A stretch of 64,000 nt of DNA from Clostridia bacterium (GCA_017397175.1 JAFQKA010000001.1:8266-72265), one strand, 5' to 3'. Shown: positions 3,712 to 12,954, counted from the first letter of the stretch. Program-made: numbers and translations. Notes: generated from the letters alone by a model not told the origin.

Positions 3712-5559
3712 ATGTGCGGTTTTGTTGGATTTTCCGGCAAGATAGATAGAAAAAAAGAGATAATCAATAAAATGATGGACAGAATAGTTCACCGCGGACC
3801 CGACATGGCGGGTGATTTTCTGTCCGATGAGATAGCTCTGGGCTTCAGACGTCTGAGCATTATCGACCTGTCCGACAGCGGAACTCAGCCTATGACAAAC
3901 GAGGACGGATCTGTTGTTATTACGTTCAACGGCGAGATCTACAACTTCGGTGAGCTGAGAGAAAAGCTGCTTGCCGCAGGTCACGTTTTCAAGAGCGGAA
4001 GCGATACCGAGGTGTTGCTCCACGGCTATGAGGAGTACGGCGAGGGTATAGTTGACATGATACGCGGAATGTTCGCTTTTGTCATCTGGGACAGCAAGAC
4101 CAAAAAGCTTTTCGGCGCCCGCGACCACTTTGGAATCAAGCCATTTTACTACACATTTACCAAGTCGGGCGACATTATCTTCGGCTCGGAGATAAAGAGC
4201 TTTTTGGAACACCCCGACTTTGTGAAAAAGGTCAACAAAAAGGCGCTTCGCCCTTATCTTACCTTCCAGTATTCTTCCATGGAGGAAACATTTTTTGAGG
4301 GTGTTTTCAAGCTCCCCGCTGCCCACTGCTTTACATGGGCACCCGGTGAGAAAATGAATATCCGCCGTTATTGGGACGTTGATTTTTCCGACAGCGACCG
4401 CGATTTTGAGACCCTGAAAAAAGAACTTGACGAGACCGTAAAAGAATCCGTGGCGGCGCACAGAATAAGCGACGTGCGTGTTGGCTCCTTCCTTTCGGGC
4501 GGCGTTGATTCCAGCTATATCACAGCGGCTCTCATGCCCGACGAGACTTTTTCCGTGGGATTTTTCGACTATGAAAAATTCAACGAGACAAACGAGGCAA
4601 AGGAGCTTTCCGACAAGCTGGGGATCAAAAATTTTCGTCGGAACATAACGGCGCAGGATTGCTTTGACAATTTTGCGGACATTCAGTACCACATGGACGA
4701 GCCTCAGTCGAACCCTTCCTCCGTTCCTCTTTATTTTCTTGCCAAATTGGCGCGTGAGCAGGTGACGGTAGTCCTTTCGGGCGAGGGTGCGGACGAGATC
4801 TACGCAGGATATGAGTGGTACGACGAGACCCCCATGATGAGAAAATACAAGAAGCTCCCTGCCTTCCTTCGCCGTTTTGCGGCGGCGGTGGCACGGCGTC
4901 TGCCCTATTTCAAGGGACACGACTTCATTATCAGGTCAAGCGGCCGTCCCGAGGATTATTTCATCGGACAGGCACTTGTATTCCCCGAAAAGGAGGCACT
5001 TTCGGTGCTTTCGAAGGAGTGTCGGAACGCACCCTCAGTAAAGGAGATTACCTCTCCTGTCTATGAGCGTGTAAAAGGGAAGACCGAGCTGCAGAAAAAG
5101 CAGTATCTCGACCTTAACCTCTGGCTTCCCGGCGACATTCTGCTAAAGGCAGATAAAATGAGCATGGCAAGCTCTCTCGAGCTGAGAGTGCCTTTCCTCG
5201 ACCGGGAGGTGATGGCGCAGGCTCAGTCGATACCCGACAAATTCAAGATCGCAAAGGGCACCACGAAATACATTTTGCGCGAGGCATCAAACGAGATCCT
5301 GCCCGACGAGTGGGCAAACAGACCCAAAAAGGGATTCCCTGTGCCGATCCGCTATTGGCTCATGCAGGACGAGTATTACAGACAAGTAAAAGAGTATTTT
5401 GAGGCGGATTTTGCCGCAGAATTCTTTGACCGCAGTGCAATTATCAAATTGCTTGACGAGCACAAGTCGGGCAAGAAGATGAACCAGAGAAAGATCTGGA
5501 CGGTGTTTACCTTCCTTGTCTGGTACAAGAGATTTTTTATTGATGAGAGCGCAAATTAA
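3712..5559 (+). CDS. asnB: Asparagine synthase (glutamine-hydrolysing), AsnB/AsnH-like amidotransferase
   Basis: ATG 3712 gives the obligatory N-terminal Cys2 (MCGFVGF) of class II amidotransferases, and a purine-rich SD lies upstream. The PP-loop FLSGGVDSS is present. 615 aa. Confidence 0.9.
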   Translation: MCGFVGFSGKIDRKKEIINKMMDRIVHRGPDMAGDFLSDEIALGFRRLSIIDLSDSGTQPMTNEDGSVVITFNGEIYNFGELREKLLAAGHVFKSGSDTEVLLHGYEEYGEGIVDMIRGMFAFVIWDSKTKKLFGARDHFGIKPFYYTFTKSGDIIFGSEIKSFLEHPDFVKKVNKKALRPYLTFQYSSMEETFFEGVFKLPAAHCFTWAPGEKMNIRRYWDVDFSDSDRDFETLKKELDETVKESVAAHRISDVRVGSFLSGGVDSSYITAALMPDETFSVGFFDYEKFNETNEAKELSDKLGIKNFRRNITAQDCFDNFADIQYHMDEPQSNPSSVPLYFLAKLAREQVTVVLSGEGADEIYAGYEWYDETPMMRKYKKLPAFLRRFAAAVARRLPYFKGHDFIIRSSGRPEDYFIGQALVFPEKEALSVLSKECRNAPSVKEITSPVYERVKGKTELQKKQYLDLNLWLPGDILLKADKMSMASSLELRVPFLDREVMAQAQSIPDKFKIAKGTTKYILREASNEILPDEWANRPKKGFPVPIRYWLMQDEYYRQVKEYFEADFAAEFFDRSAIIKLLDEHKSGKKMNQRKIWTVFTFLVWYKRFFIDESAN

Positions 5560-8829: not shown

Positions 8830-10113
8830 TTATTCCTTCGGCTCAATCGTTTTTTTCGGCTTTTCCTTTTTTGCCTTGGGAGGCTTTTTTGCCTTTGGTT
8901 CCTTTTTGGGGCTTTCTTTTTTTGGTGCGGGCGGGGTTTCTTCTTCATCATCCTGAAGATCGGCAAAATCGCAGGCGGGCAGTTTTCCGTCGGCTACCTT
9001 CTTTTCGATCTTTTTTGCCGCGTGTTCCTTGAACAGCTCAAGAATTACCGCAAAGAGAGGAATAAAGAAGATGATTCCTATAATTCCCAGCAGATTGCCG
9101 CCGATAAGCGCGGCAACAAGTGTGTAGAGAGGGGAAAGTCCAACAGCCGTGCCTACCACGCGGGGGTAGATAAGCTGTGTTTCGACAAACTGAACGGCAA
9201 GATAGATGATAAGGCACAAAAGAGCCTTTTCGGGCGCGACCAGCAAAGTCAGGAATACGCTGACAGCGCAGGAAATGAACGCGCCTATGTAGGGAATGAT
9301 GGCGCAGACCGCAGTCAGAACCGCCACAAGGCTTGCATAGGGCATTTTAAAGATCGAAAAGGATATGAATATGAGTACGCCCAGGATCAGCGCCTCGCTG
9401 CACTGTCCGAACAGGAATTTTGAGAATATGTCTGCAAATGAACGGCAGAATCTCAAAATGCCCTTTGCCCACGAGGGCTTCAAATATGCGCCGATCAAGA
9501 GCTTTCCGTGCCTTGCCACGGTTCTTTTTTCAAGAGCCGCGTAGATGGAAATAATTATGGCAAAAAGTGCGGTGGTTACTATATTTATGGTGGAGGAGAA
9601 CACGCTGATGACGTTGACGAAAATAAAGTCCGCGCCTGTTGTCAGCTTGTTTACGATATCCGAGAAGTTGTCCAGAATCGCTTTGAAATTGATCTTGCTT
9701 ACAAGATCCTGTATCCACTGAACGTCAAAATGCTTGAGGCTCAGTTCCTTTATTCTTGCCTCGATCTGGGTGTAAAGCACTTTTACGGAGCTTGTGATCT
9801 CGGGGATAAGCAGTGTCAGTACCAGGGTCAGCACCAGGGCGATGCAAGCCAGGGTGAGAAGGAAGCTGACGATGACGAAAGCCTTTTCCGAGGGCTTTCT
9901 TTTTGCTTTTGCAAACATTCTTTTCAGGATCTTCTGGATCCCGTTCATGGGAACGATGAGAAAAAGCGCGATTATTCCGCCCACGATCACGGGCAGAATA
10001 AGGGTTATAAGTTTACTTGTATAAGATGTGACCGCCGAGAAATTCATGAGCGCGGCGAACAGTACTACGCCCGTTATTGTTACGAGCAGGGCCTTTTTTG
10101 TGTTGATTCCCAT
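8830..10113 (-). CDS. AI-2E (PerM/YdiK-like) family transporter with a Lys/Pro-rich C-terminal tail
   Basis: 427 aa with about 8 hydrophobic segments in an AI-2E-like arrangement. The last ~45 aa are low-complexity (PPAPKKESPKKEPKAKKPPKAKKEKPKK). Confidence 0.75.
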   Translation of the reverse strand: MGINTKKALLVTITGVVLFAALMNFSAVTSYTSKLITLILPVIVGGIIALFLIVPMNGIQKILKRMFAKAKRKPSEKAFVIVSFLLTLACIALVLTLVLTLLIPEITSSVKVLYTQIEARIKELSLKHFDVQWIQDLVSKINFKAILDNFSDIVNKLTTGADFIFVNVISVFSSTINIVTTALFAIIISIYAALEKRTVARHGKLLIGAYLKPSWAKGILRFCRSFADIFSKFLFGQCSEALILGVLIFISFSIFKMPYASLVAVLTAVCAIIPYIGAFISCAVSVFLTLLVAPEKALLCLIIYLAVQFVETQLIYPRVVGTAVGLSPLYTLVAALIGGNLLGIIGIIFFIPLFAVILELFKEHAAKKIEKKVADGKLPACDFADLQDDEEETPPAPKKESPKKEPKAKKPPKAKKEKPKKTIEPKE

Positions 10114-10339
10114 TTTGCAACCTTTCTTTTTTATCGAATAGAGGAAAAACTTTTACACTTTACATTATAAATCTTTTTCAGGGGCGTGTCAAGAAGTGTG
10201 GAAAAAATTCACAAAATCCGATAAATTTCGTATTGATGCCGTGGTAAAATAAAAGAAAAAGGAGGGGTGCTTTCTGCAAAAAAAGGAAAATCTGATACTT
10301 CGCATATGGAAAAGGCGCAAAAGTGACAGAGTTTTTCGA

Positions 10340-10960
10340 ATGAAGCTGTCCCTTTTCGGCGGCGGGGCGGTCAATCTCGCTTACGTCGGCATAAAACTTT
10401 TTGCGGGTGTCGCATCCAATTCTTTTTTTCTCATTTCTCTTTCTGCGTACTATGCCCTGCTGTTTTCCCTGCGATTTTATCTGCTGGGACACATAAGAAA
10501 GAAAAACCCGGGAGATTGTCTTTTGTCCGAGCTGAAACGGGCGAGGAATTGCGGAGTGCTTCTTTTTGTTATGGGACTTGCCCTGTCCGTTATAGTGTTT
10601 TTTGTGGTCTATCTGAATCGCGGATACCGATATCCGGGTATACTTATATATGCGGTGGGCGGGTACACCGTTTATTCGGTGACATCGGCTTTTTTCGAGC
10701 TTTTTCTGCACGGGAAGAACGCTACGCCGGTGGAAGCTACCACGGGTATTGTGAAACTGACGGCAGCGCTCGTCTCCTTTCTTGCTCTTGAAAGTGCCGT
10801 ATTTGAAAGGCTTGGCGGTTCTGTATCGTTCGGTTCCAGACGGATAATTCTTGGAACTACGGGTGGCGGCATTTGCCTGGCGGTGCTTTCAATGTCGGTG
10901 CTCATGATCTCCCGAGCTCACAGAAAATTGCGGCGTTTCAACGAAAAAACGGACGGGTGA
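10340..10960 (+). CDS. Integral membrane protein of unknown function
   Basis: 206 aa with 5-6 hydrophobic helices; I recognise no family. ATG 10340 lacks an SD. A strong SD (GGAGG, 10261-10265) precedes an in-frame CTG at 10274, so the start is uncertain. Confidence 0.6.
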   Translation: MKLSLFGGGAVNLAYVGIKLFAGVASNSFFLISLSAYYALLFSLRFYLLGHIRKKNPGDCLLSELKRARNCGVLLFVMGLALSVIVFFVVYLNRGYRYPGILIYAVGGYTVYSVTSAFFELFLHGKNATPVEATTGIVKLTAALVSFLALESAVFERLGGSVSFGSRRIILGTTGGGICLAVLSMSVLMISRAHRKLRRFNEKTDG

Positions 10961-11039
10961 AACTCCTGCATAAGGTGGTCATTTTGTCGAAAACGAGCTA
11001 ATTGCGATGCACTAATGTCCGAAAAATCAAAAATCCGTC

Positions 11040-11068
11040 TTGAAAAAGAAAAAAGAATGTGATATAAT
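11040..11068 (+). promoter_or_regulatory. Near-consensus sigma-A promoter driving the orphan RNA
   Basis: TTGAAA (11040-11045), a 17-nt spacer, then TATAAT (11063-11068) with an extended -10 TG (TGaTATAAT). Confidence 0.7.
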
Positions 11069-11072
11069 ACGT

Positions 11073-11286
11073 ATGTCACATCATCTTAATAACACAGATA
11101 ACCTACAAAGGGGGTACTATACCCTTTTTTCAGCCATACTATATTTCGGTAGAAATACGGTATCGCAATAATCGGCTGAAAAGTAGGTTATAGATGGTGT
11201 GACAACTACGCGAGAGGTATTCTACGGTGTCACCTCGCAAGGGGTGGCACCTTATTGTAAAACGGACGGGTGAACCGTCCGTTTTG
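11073..11286 (+). ncRNA. Orphan structured small RNA (~210 nt), family not recognised
   Basis: Nested perfect helices are present:
- P1: 11074-85 / 11193-204 (12 bp).
- P2: 11098-106 / 11183-91 (9 bp).
- P3 hairpin: 11110-26.
- P4: 11127-35 / 11174-82.
- P5 hairpin: 11136-63.
- An 11-bp hairpin with a GCAA tetraloop: 11226-51.
- Terminator stem: 11262-69 / 11275-82, followed by a U-run.
There is no SD-led ORF and no downstream same-strand gene. Confidence 0.6.
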
Positions 11287-12954
11287 TTATTTGAGATTGT
11301 CTCCGTAGCGTTTGATCTTTTGAGTTGTGGTTCTCTCGAGAGGCGAGGTGAGGATATCGAATTTCTGAATCTTCTTATATGCGGGGACGGCGTCGTTTAC
11401 CGCGTTTACCGCGTCGGTGACAGCCGCCTTGATCTCCTCGGGGGCGGGTGTGTGTCCCAGCTTTTCGGCAAGGTAGGCTTCGGAGGGGTATATCTTGGCT
11501 CTTACGCAGGGGTCGCCGTGGCGATCCTTGCCCTCCAGCACCAGACATTCGGCTATTGCCTCGTTTTCTCCGAGCCTGTCCTCGATCTCCTCGGGGAAAA
11601 TGTTCTTGCCGTTTGCGGTGACGATGACGTTTTTGATCCTGCCCTTGATATGAACTCCGCCGTTTTCGTCGATGAAGCCCAGGTCTCCCGTGTGGAACCA
11701 GCGGTTTTTGATCACCGCCGCCGTAGCTTCCTCGTCGCGGTAGTAGCCGAGCATTACGTTGTCACCCGAGGCTATTATCTCGCCCACTCCGTTCTCGTCG
11801 GGATTGGCGATTCGCAGAGTTACGCCGGGAATTGCACAGCCTGCGGTCTCCGGATCGTAGAAGAAATCGTTGTTTGCGGAAAGAATGGGAGATGTCTCGG
11901 TGAGTCCGTAGCCCTGTATAGTTTTAATACCAAGGGCGTTGAAATCCTCGATGAGTGCAGGGTCGATCGCCGCCGCACCGACCACCATCATTCGCAATTT
12001 TCCGCCAAGGCTCTTTTTGACGTTTGAGCAAATGACCTTTCTTACAAAGAAGGGCAGAGTGCCGAGCGCCTCGGCCAGAGACAGCTCGTCAAAGGCCTTT
12101 TTGTATTTCTGCGGACATTCCTTTGCGATAGCCATGCGAAGTCGTTTGCTGAGCACCTTGAGAAGTGCGGGGACGACCACAAGCACCGTGTTGTTGTATT
12201 CTTTGAGATTGGTTGCAATGCGGTTAAGACCGTCGCAATAGGAAATACAAGCCCCTCTCGCCAGAACGCAGAGCATATCTATGGTCGCGGCATAGGTGTG
12301 GTGCAAGGGCAGGATCGAGAGCACCTTATCCGTGGTGTAGACCCGAATGACCCTCAGGATCTGATGGACGTTTGAACATACGTTGAACTGAGACAGGCAA
12401 ACTCCCTTTGAAGAGCCCGTGGTGCCCGAGGTAAAGATGAGGATCCTCATCTGATCGGGGGGATAAGTGTAGGAATTTATCCTTTGAAGATCCCGAGGGG
12501 TGTATTTTATGGGACGATCGGGAATTTCGGAAAGGTCGTACACACAGTCGAAACGGCGAACTCCCTCAAGCTTGCCCTGAACCTTTTTGTCAGCGCAAAT
12601 AGCAGTGCAATCCGCCGCATCGCAGAAATCGGCGATATCGCGGCCGGACAGCTCCTTATCTATTGGAACGACCACGCCGACGGTAGCCGCCGCCAGGTAG
12701 GCGATCGCCCACCCTCCGCTGTTTTCGCCGCTGACGGCGATGCGCTTGCCCTCAAGTCCGTGACGGATAAAGGACGCGCACAGGGATATATATATTTCAT
12801 ACAACTCCTTGTAGGAGATATATCTGTATTTTCCCGCAGAGACCTTCAGCTGAAGCGCCGCTTTGTCACCTGCTTTCTCGACTGAGTAGGCCAGAAGATC
12901 CCTGAAGCAGTCAAATCGGGGTACGTTATAGTAAGAGGTCGTTTGTGTTTTCAT
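11287..12954 (-). CDS. AMP-dependent acyl-CoA synthetase/ligase (long-chain fatty acid-CoA ligase-like)
   Basis: 555 aa. The AMP-binding motifs TSGTTGSSKGV, QGYGLTE and WFHTGDLG are present. Confidence 0.85.
   Translation of the reverse strand: MKTQTTSYYNVPRFDCFRDLLAYSVEKAGDKAALQLKVSAGKYRYISYKELYEIYISLCASFIRHGLEGKRIAVSGENSGGWAIAYLAAATVGVVVPIDKELSGRDIADFCDAADCTAICADKKVQGKLEGVRRFDCVYDLSEIPDRPIKYTPRDLQRINSYTYPPDQMRILIFTSGTTGSSKGVCLSQFNVCSNVHQILRVIRVYTTDKVLSILPLHHTYAATIDMLCVLARGACISYCDGLNRIATNLKEYNNTVLVVVPALLKVLSKRLRMAIAKECPQKYKKAFDELSLAEALGTLPFFVRKVICSNVKKSLGGKLRMMVVGAAAIDPALIEDFNALGIKTIQGYGLTETSPILSANNDFFYDPETAGCAIPGVTLRIANPDENGVGEIIASGDNVMLGYYRDEEATAAVIKNRWFHTGDLGFIDENGGVHIKGRIKNVIVTANGKNIFPEEIEDRLGENEAIAECLVLEGKDRHGDPCVRAKIYPSEAYLAEKLGHTPAPEEIKAAVTDAVNAVNDAVPAYKKIQKFDILTSPLERTTTQKIKRYGDNLK

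Follow-up and report, generated by a model that had tools for sequence, protein, structure and literature searches.

The intergenic interval studied here lies between two convergent genes of a Clostridia bacterium and raises the question of what an RNA with a promoter and an elaborate fold does where no gene follows it. The original prediction, made on the 64-kb stretch of DNA analysed here (the window), had proposed a stand-alone structured RNA of unrecognised family that cannot act as a cis leader. The analysis below leads to a different origin for this RNA, as the leader left behind when a small mobile cassette lost its only gene.

Results

Promoter and fold of the window RNA

Fold and pattern searches found the predicted promoter, helices and terminator all in place (Table 1). 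The promoter (11040-11068, + strand) consists of TTGAAA (11040-11045), a 17-nt spacer and TGaTATAAT (11060-11068), which matches the consensus at 11 of 12 positions and adds the extended -10 TG. As two such patterns were found in a 2.5-kb region against 2.4 expected, the match alone is unremarkable; all members of the RNA family described below keep the TTGAAA -35 and a TGnTATAAT-type -10 at the position seen in the window. Transcription is predicted to start near 11074-11076. The + strand of 11070-11290 folds with a minimum free energy of -95.4 kcal/mol (z = -10.2), and 0 of 200 dinucleotide shuffles were equally stable, so that a structured RNA with its own promoter, as first proposed, is well borne out. 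The interval contains no conserved or SD-led ORF, and at this locus, as had been stated, no gene follows, the next one (11287-12954, - strand, an AMP-binding enzyme) being convergent to the RNA. Because promoter and RNA are intact, the RNA is probably still transcribed, and the window copy probably yields a transcript of ~180-215 nt ending at its own weakened terminator or at that of the host.

The failure to recognise a family was upheld by Rfam 15. At gathering thresholds, no match to a tRNA, rRNA, riboswitch or other family was obtained in the whole 64-kb window, and the window RNA fell below the thresholds of raiA, Clostridiales-1, 6S, SRP, RNase P and tmRNA. A local search with E up to 10 returned only noise (MIR4380, E 8.8; VR-RNA, E 1.5), and the RNAs of nine other family loci had no match in Rfam either.

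Table 1. Positions of the features of the insertion and its RNA in the window
Feature	Position	Strand	Remarks
Left AAAACGGACGGGTGAA copy	10946-10961	+	Last codons and TGA stop of the upstream 206-aa membrane-protein gene
Left cassette end, 5' of promoter	10962-11039	+	~97% identical to L007/L008 and L003
Structured RNA core	11073-11208	+	Covariance model R1, 159 bits, sole match in window
P1	11074-11086/11192-11204	+	Fold, 13 bp
5' internal loop with conserved AAUA	11087-11097	+	Fold
P2	11098-11106/11183-11191	+	Fold
P3 hairpin	11110-11126	+	Fold; arm of three-way junction
P4	11127-11135/11174-11182	+	Fold; arm of three-way junction
Apical hairpin with conserved GGUAG loop	11136-11163	+	Fold
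Conserved joining strand UCGCAAUAAUC	11163-11173	+	Adjoins apical hairpin
Near-invariant linker ACUACGCGAGAGGUAUUCUAC	11205-11225	+	5' strand and loop of proposed antiterminator
11-bp GCAA-loop hairpin	11226-11251	+	Intrinsic terminator of the family
U-tract remnant UUAUUGU	11252-11258	+	ORF absent from here on in the window copy
Right AAAACGGACGGGTGAA copy	11259-11274	+	Right boundary of insert; 5' arm and loop of terminator hairpin
Host bidirectional intrinsic terminator	11259-11296	both	Stem 11259-11269/11275-11285, loop GTGAA, T run

Insertion into a host terminator

A perfect 16-nt direct repeat, AAAACGGACGGGTGAA, which the original prediction did not include, occurs at 10946-10961 and 11259-11274 (0.08 expected by chance) and brackets a 313-bp insert. 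The repeat flanks the whole unit and shows it to be an insertion in a host terminator. Besides the end of the upstream gene, the left copy contains the 5' arm that the original host terminator had, together with its loop, and deletion of the 313 bp between the repeats restores one bidirectional terminator. The terminator first given to the RNA (11262-11282) is accordingly reassigned to the host, as a bidirectional terminator half duplicated by the insertion; it is common to the convergent AMP-binding gene (end 11287) and now also ends the orphan RNA.

The site was found in other states in related contigs. In L094 and L095, whose AMP-binding protein is 100% identical to that of the window, the site is empty, the gap being 14 nt and the terminator present once (...CGAAAAAACGGACGGGTGAACCGTCCGTTTTGTTATTTGAG), and this allele of the same species carries the 16-nt sequence once only. 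The relatives L005, L006 and L011 (upstream protein 78-83% identical) also have an empty site, and the single-copy terminators of L094, L005 and L011 are identical to the host terminator of the window. Besides the window, no fewer than three contigs (L001/L092, L093 and L096), with several samples represented, carry the RNA-only allele. The site is occupied in L007 and L008 (81% identity in the upstream protein) by this promoter and RNA, followed by a 159-aa ORF, and the unit is flanked by the same 15-nt repeat. The insert is ~98% identical between the window and L007/L008 while the adjacent host flanks have diverged; likewise, 10962-11039 is conserved relative to L007/L008 and L003 although the host flanks just outside it have diverged. 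L003, with an upstream protein 100% identical to that of the window, has an identical RNA followed by a different ORF allele (MMREEKICSFFGHRS...), whose protein is 63% identical to that of L007. Within one species, then, the site occurs in three forms: vacant, with the RNA alone, and with the full cassette. The window copy is best read, from this comparison of alleles, as the full cassette minus its ORF, lost just after the leader U tract (CCTTATT/GT/AAAACGG), and no homologue of the ORF was found elsewhere in the 64-kb window.

Two further observations concern these loci. In L093 (4769-4775, read on the - strand), an A-to-C change in the P2 3' strand (AAAAGTCGGTTAT) breaks a base pair, which may represent decay of an orphan RNA-only copy. 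The upstream membrane-protein gene (window 10262-10960) has orthologues of 228 aa, and its ORF in the window starts 22 codons later (ATG 10340); the frame 5' of this ATG still encodes the homologous N-terminus (...KKENLILRIWKRRKSDRVFRMKLSLF), without ATG, GTG or TTG, so that either the start codon has been lost or a non-canonical start is used. Divergent from this gene is that of an AI-2E family transporter (8830-10113, - strand), preceded at 10164-10192 (- strand) by a perfect sigma-70 consensus promoter, TTGACA-17-TATAAT (12/12).

Occurrence and covariation of the RNA family

A profile scan of genome contigs with an alignment of the cassette protein yielded 80 loci in gut Clostridia MAGs from ruminants and other hosts; these loci were gathered via the protein, and RNA-only copies elsewhere stand outside this count. 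With the window RNA as the query, nhmmer placed the RNA directly upstream of the SLOG gene in ~45 of the 80 loci. The claim that the RNA cannot act as a cis leader therefore holds for the window copy and fails for the family, which precedes the gene in these loci and in L003; in the same way, the RNA stands alone at the window locus only, being by origin the leader of a mobile cassette gene. We place high confidence in the insertion, in the reading of the window copy as a remnant and in the linkage of RNA and gene.

A covariance model, R1, built from 12 close members, found 48 copies in 83 sources, one of them in the window. Each of 47 members, folded singly, gave the same architecture, in the order P1, 5' internal loop, P2, three-way junction (P3 hairpin, P4 and apical hairpin), linker, GCAA hairpin, U tract and ATG. 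On the model alignment, 93.4% of cells were paired as compared with 75% in shuffles, compensatory changes on both sides were found in 39 of 49 pairs, including every pair of P2 and P4, and the covariation score was 0.49 as against 0.17 when shuffled and at most 0.085 with partners slid. This alignment is fitted to the model, and the single-sequence folds serve as its independent control. MAFFT with RNAalifold on the 47 sequences had recovered P1 and the terminator only, because variable helices misalign, and was replaced by the single folds and the covariance-model alignment. Helix sequences are wholly replaced between subgroups with the pairing kept, and a stretch of ~55 nt, which begins with the 3' strand of P1 and runs up to the GCAA hairpin, is almost invariant across the family. 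A literature search on DUF1273, YpsA or SLOG with riboswitches did not find such an RNA described. The RNA is real, conserved and absent from Rfam.

These data bear on whether the unit could be a palindromic repeat at the DNA level, MITE- or REP-like, that folds without any function as RNA. Near-perfect helices and flanking direct repeats would suit such an element, and the - strand of the interval also folds (z = -6.4). The + strand, however, folds far better (z = -10.2); several pairs are mostly G-U or U-G, which pair in the + strand RNA only; and pairing survives full replacement of the helices in 39 of 49 pairs. The unit is, moreover, bracketed by a conserved promoter and terminator, it lacks terminal inverted repeats, and it occurs once in the 64-kb window, where BLASTN and both covariance models found no RNA copy beyond 11073-11208. 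We regard a mere DNA palindrome as hardly credible.

Several loci depart from the single-cassette layout. Tandem promoter-RNA units of differing helix subtypes stand before one SLOG gene in L035 (1900-2500), L057 (1010-1490) and L058 (1960-2480), and the first L035 unit keeps a 40-codon ORF stub nearly identical to the L003 allele, which suggests that one cassette has inserted into, or recombined with, another. L038 has a normal cassette and, 0.8 kb downstream, a divergent relative of the RNA (3769-3950; 54 bits with model R2, E about 1e-9). This relative has a rod-like fold (z = -10) and its own promoter and terminator; an SD comes next, and then the ORF of an unrelated membrane protein of 201 aa, which has a zinc ribbon at its C terminus. 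In addition, a THF riboswitch (71 bits) is located 0.9 kb upstream of the cassette in L039 (1419-1510), and a tRNA gene ~0.3 kb upstream of the cassette RNA in L051 (1946-2018).

The cassette protein

The cassette ORF, absent from the window, encodes a protein of 155-160 aa. Its match to Pfam PF06908 (YpsA) scored 19.0 bits (E = 1.5e-3), below the gathering cut-off of 27.7, and searches of PADLOC, NCBIfam and PDB sequences gave no useful match. At least 545 homologues were found in the protein database; the 120 with the best scores are 68-99% identical to the query, and among these 120 the homologues with a named source come from Clostridia or Ruminococcaceae MAGs, one being annotated as 'DUF1273 domain-containing'. 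An AlphaFold2 model from 46 sequences (pLDDT 92, pTM 0.88) had its best PDB match by Foldseek in B. subtilis YpsA (2nx2; E 6e-6, probability 1.00, 12% identity in the structural alignment), and ShosA (8zva), DprA, a MoCo carrier protein, LOG and the TRPM8 N-terminal domain were also matched with probability 1.00. On this model, the protein has a SLOG fold, which is Rossmann-like. YpsA is described as one of the nucleotide/ligand-binding SLOG proteins and, when overproduced, blocks cell division (PMC6459960); tight control of SLOG expression is plausible for that reason.

Mobility of the cassette

Significant flanking direct repeats, locus-specific and 16-63 nt long, were found at 8 of ~38 testable loci, and in 7 of these 8 a terminator hairpin lies inside the repeats. 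On its right side, the cassette ends at the stop codon of the ORF, which target bases sometimes complete; on its left side, it begins 20-75 nt before the -35 element. At the cassette ends, no terminal inverted repeats were found, and in 45 loci neither a recombinase nor any recurrent neighbour gene was found next to the cassette. Some MAGs carry two copies. A 32-nt conserved pattern had 0 matches in viral contigs and 1 in JGI metagenome contigs (L097), distant-mode blastn gave one insignificant match in phage records and none in plasmid records, and a literature search on terminator-duplicating insertions returned nothing relevant. The near-identical RNAs with divergent ORFs suggest, from their sequences, that the modules are exchanged by recombination in the 3' part of the leader, which is invariant. 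By eye, a GCGCT pentamer occurs 10-60 nt inside the left end in L007, L019, L022 and L028, and again just beyond the right repeat in L019 and L028.

How such a cassette moves invites the thought that its own products are responsible, as it holds nothing but a promoter, the RNA and the SLOG ORF, with no recombinase or recurrent neighbour in 45 loci. In that case the RNA, as guide, scaffold or template, might act with a DprA-like SLOG protein to direct the insertions into terminator hairpins. The insertion polymorphism and the multiple copies in some MAGs agree with this, as do the terminator hairpins in 7 of 8 flanking duplications and the resemblance of the protein fold to the ssDNA-binding DprA. 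We nevertheless consider it very improbable, because the cassette is devoid of nuclease, recombinase and reverse-transcriptase domains, inspection of the variable RNA loop against the targets found no complementarity, duplications occur at just 8 of ~38 loci, and the cassette is absent from the scanned viral contigs; besides, the most conserved part of the RNA is the terminator/antiterminator region, which points to regulation. It is likewise improbable that the promoter-RNA-SLOG cassette is a new autonomous mobile element, both products of which drive insertion into terminator hairpins and so give the 16-63 nt duplications, with the window unit as a non-autonomous derivative.

A terminator and a predicted competing antiterminator before the SLOG gene

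The GCAA hairpin, originally listed as a separate hairpin, has to be redefined as the intrinsic terminator of the family, with a conserved competing antiterminator predicted beside it. In intact cassettes, it is followed by the U tract UUAUUUUUU, the canonical form of an intrinsic terminator, and it is paired in 99.8% of cells. The ATG follows the hairpin by 9-15 nt without an SD between them in 42 of 44 loci, and there is no space for a promoter in this gap. The SLOG gene lacks its own promoter and in most cases an SD, so that read-through of the GCAA hairpin would be the only way for it to be transcribed. In L034 and L072, homologues of SLOG with ~65% identity stand behind an ordinary promoter and an SD, and the RNA is absent.

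When the region was folded minus the 3' arm of the terminator, a 12-13-bp hairpin, UGCGAGAGGUAUU-CUAC-GGUGUCAUCUCGCA, appeared in nearly every member. This predicted antiterminator uses up the 5' arm of the terminator, and the two hairpins are therefore mutually exclusive. It persists where the terminator loop differs (L042, L044 and L050) and is paired in 94.6% of cells as compared with at most 53% when slid; its sequence is near-invariant and offers no informative variation, and covariation cannot confirm it because the region hardly varies. The linker CUAC (11222-11225) is also complementary to the invariant GUAG of the apical loop (11149-11152). One pair of this match varies (U-A in 41 members, U-G in 4 and C-G in 1) and the rest is near-invariant, which hints at a possible loop pseudoknot. 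For a second pseudoknot candidate, GCGA in the linker with UCGC in the junction, the sequence is invariant and covariation uninformative.

Two other pairings were rejected. In the case of an extended pseudoknot of GUAGAAAUAC with GUAUUCUAC, it is the local P5 hairpin that covaries, and U.U stands in place of A-U in 14 members. Sequence inspection spoke against an alternative pairing between the 3' strand of P1 and the 5' arm of the terminator, P1 variants in L025, L039 and L058 being unmatched by changes in the terminator.

We infer that the RNA is transcribed and switches between the two hairpins, and the following scheme would account for the data. The window segment 10962-11274 is the gene-less derivative of a mobile cassette of ~0.75 kb that comprises promoter, leader RNA and YpsA-like SLOG gene and that entered the terminator between two convergent host genes, duplicating 16 nt. 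In the intact cassette, the RNA is the 5' leader of the SLOG gene, and the near-invariant linker can pair with the terminator 5' arm into a predicted 13-bp antiterminator. While the folded P1-P5 domain held the linker, perhaps partly via GUAG:CUAC, the terminator would form and the gene would be off; once the linker was released, the antiterminator would form and the gene would be read. Some signal, a small molecule or a protein, would presumably shift this balance. With the linker released, the 3' arm, which is rich in G (AAGGGGUGG), would be exposed as well and might be used as a ribosome-binding site at a distance. The window copy has lost its ORF precisely after the terminator, leaving the RNA with nothing in cis to regulate.

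That the family is a transcription-attenuating, riboswitch-like leader, with the window copy as its remnant, is the reading we prefer, and we judge it rather probable. Our confidence in the attenuation mechanism itself is moderate, and in any statement on the signal it is low. Against an attenuator, P1 is very stable at 13 bp, and both antiterminator and pseudoknot lie in nearly invariant sequence, beyond the support of covariation. The tie of the RNA to essentially one gene family on a mobile cassette is atypical of metabolite riboswitches, and the SLOG homologues of L034 and L072, which lack the RNA, also weigh against this reading. RNA-only units with their own promoter recur (in the window and as the first unit in both L057 and L058), and the persistence of such units, complete with promoter and terminator, is not expected of a purely cis element.

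This recurrence, together with the layout of the cassette and the harm done by excess YpsA, keeps alive an antitoxin-like role in trans, in which the RNA would neutralise the SLOG protein, by binding it or in some other way, much as in type III toxin-antitoxin systems and the window copy would be an orphan antitoxin after loss of the toxin gene. The strong promoter would then give an excess of RNA, and a leaky terminator would pass little of a potentially toxic SLOG mRNA. The order of promoter, RNA, terminator and an ORF without promoter or SD is one that we take to be ToxIN-like, the cassette is mobile and polymorphic like addiction modules, and the deletion in the window took exactly the ORF and spared the RNA. 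Overproduced YpsA is, in addition, harmful to cells (PMC6459960). On the other side, tandem repeats are missing from the RNA, the fold predicted for the protein is SLOG and not that of an endoribonuclease, PADLOC gave no match, the same RNA (~98% identical) is paired with ORFs just 63% identical, the distant relative in L038 precedes an unrelated gene, and a conserved antiterminator would be superfluous. An antitoxin role is, on balance, unlikely.

Discussion

Like the transcription-terminating riboswitches and orphan candidates of Firmicutes, the RNA family described here is found in a 5' leader, possesses a covarying multi-helix junction with invariant joining nucleotides, and places a terminator right before the ORF with a predicted, mutually exclusive antiterminator drawn from a conserved linker; a loop-linker pseudoknot is a possible further likeness. 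It differs from them in a very long P1 (13 bp), that of most riboswitches being marginal, in having no Rfam match while being tied to one gene family of a mobile cassette, and in a conserved unit that includes its own promoter and also exists as stand-alone RNA.

Type III toxin-antitoxin systems (ToxIN, CptIN and TenpIN) resemble the cassette in the use of one promoter, a structured RNA, a terminator and a gene dependent on read-through, and the cassette is likewise mobile and has orphan RNA copies. The cassette RNA, however, is a single multi-helix fold of ~180 nt and not a series of tandem 34-36-nt repeats: TRF reported only an A-rich 7-mer in the promoter spacer, and internal direct repeats were not found in the RNA. 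The protein, with its SLOG/YpsA fold and no PADLOC match, also differs from endoRNases such as ToxN and AbiQ. As for YpsA of Bacillus and Staphylococcus (DUF1273, PF06908), its structure 2nx2 is the best match of the predicted fold of the cassette protein. The ypsA gene has a conserved gpsB neighbourhood, and the cassette gene, unlike it, is outside this neighbourhood, on a mobile cassette behind a structured leader.

Small mobile elements offer further comparisons. In the bridge RNA/seekRNA of IS110/IS1111 and the omega-RNA of IscB/TnpB, as in the cassette, a structured RNA with its own promoter stands beside the only ORF of the element. The cassette, in contrast, encodes no DEDD recombinase, RuvC nuclease, TnpB or IscB, its ORF being a SLOG protein of 155 aa; its flanking duplications are long and variable, and no guide-like match to the target was seen. 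For a retron (msr-msd), an adjacent reverse-transcriptase gene was looked for and not found, SLOG being the only cassette ORF, with no recurrent neighbour in 45 loci. Unlike a MITE or a classical insertion sequence, the cassette lacks inverted repeats and has flanking repeats of variable length (16-63 nt). The carrier is a minimal, recombinase-less cassette, polymorphic within one species, that duplicates host terminators, a signature that we could not match to a known mechanism.

For annotation, the locus teaches that a structured RNA which looks like an 'orphan' can be what remains after the gene it regulated in cis has gone; only the comparison with related loci changed the reading of the window RNA. 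The RNA family is new to Rfam 15, its covariation is unusually clear, its proposed terminator/antiterminator platform is easy to read, and it represents a concrete orphan riboswitch or attenuator candidate for ligand screening. Nucleotides and ligands are sensed by SLOG domains, which turn up repeatedly in conflict systems; with a YpsA-like SLOG protein as the cargo of the cassette, a signal derived from a nucleotide may be what the RNA responds to.
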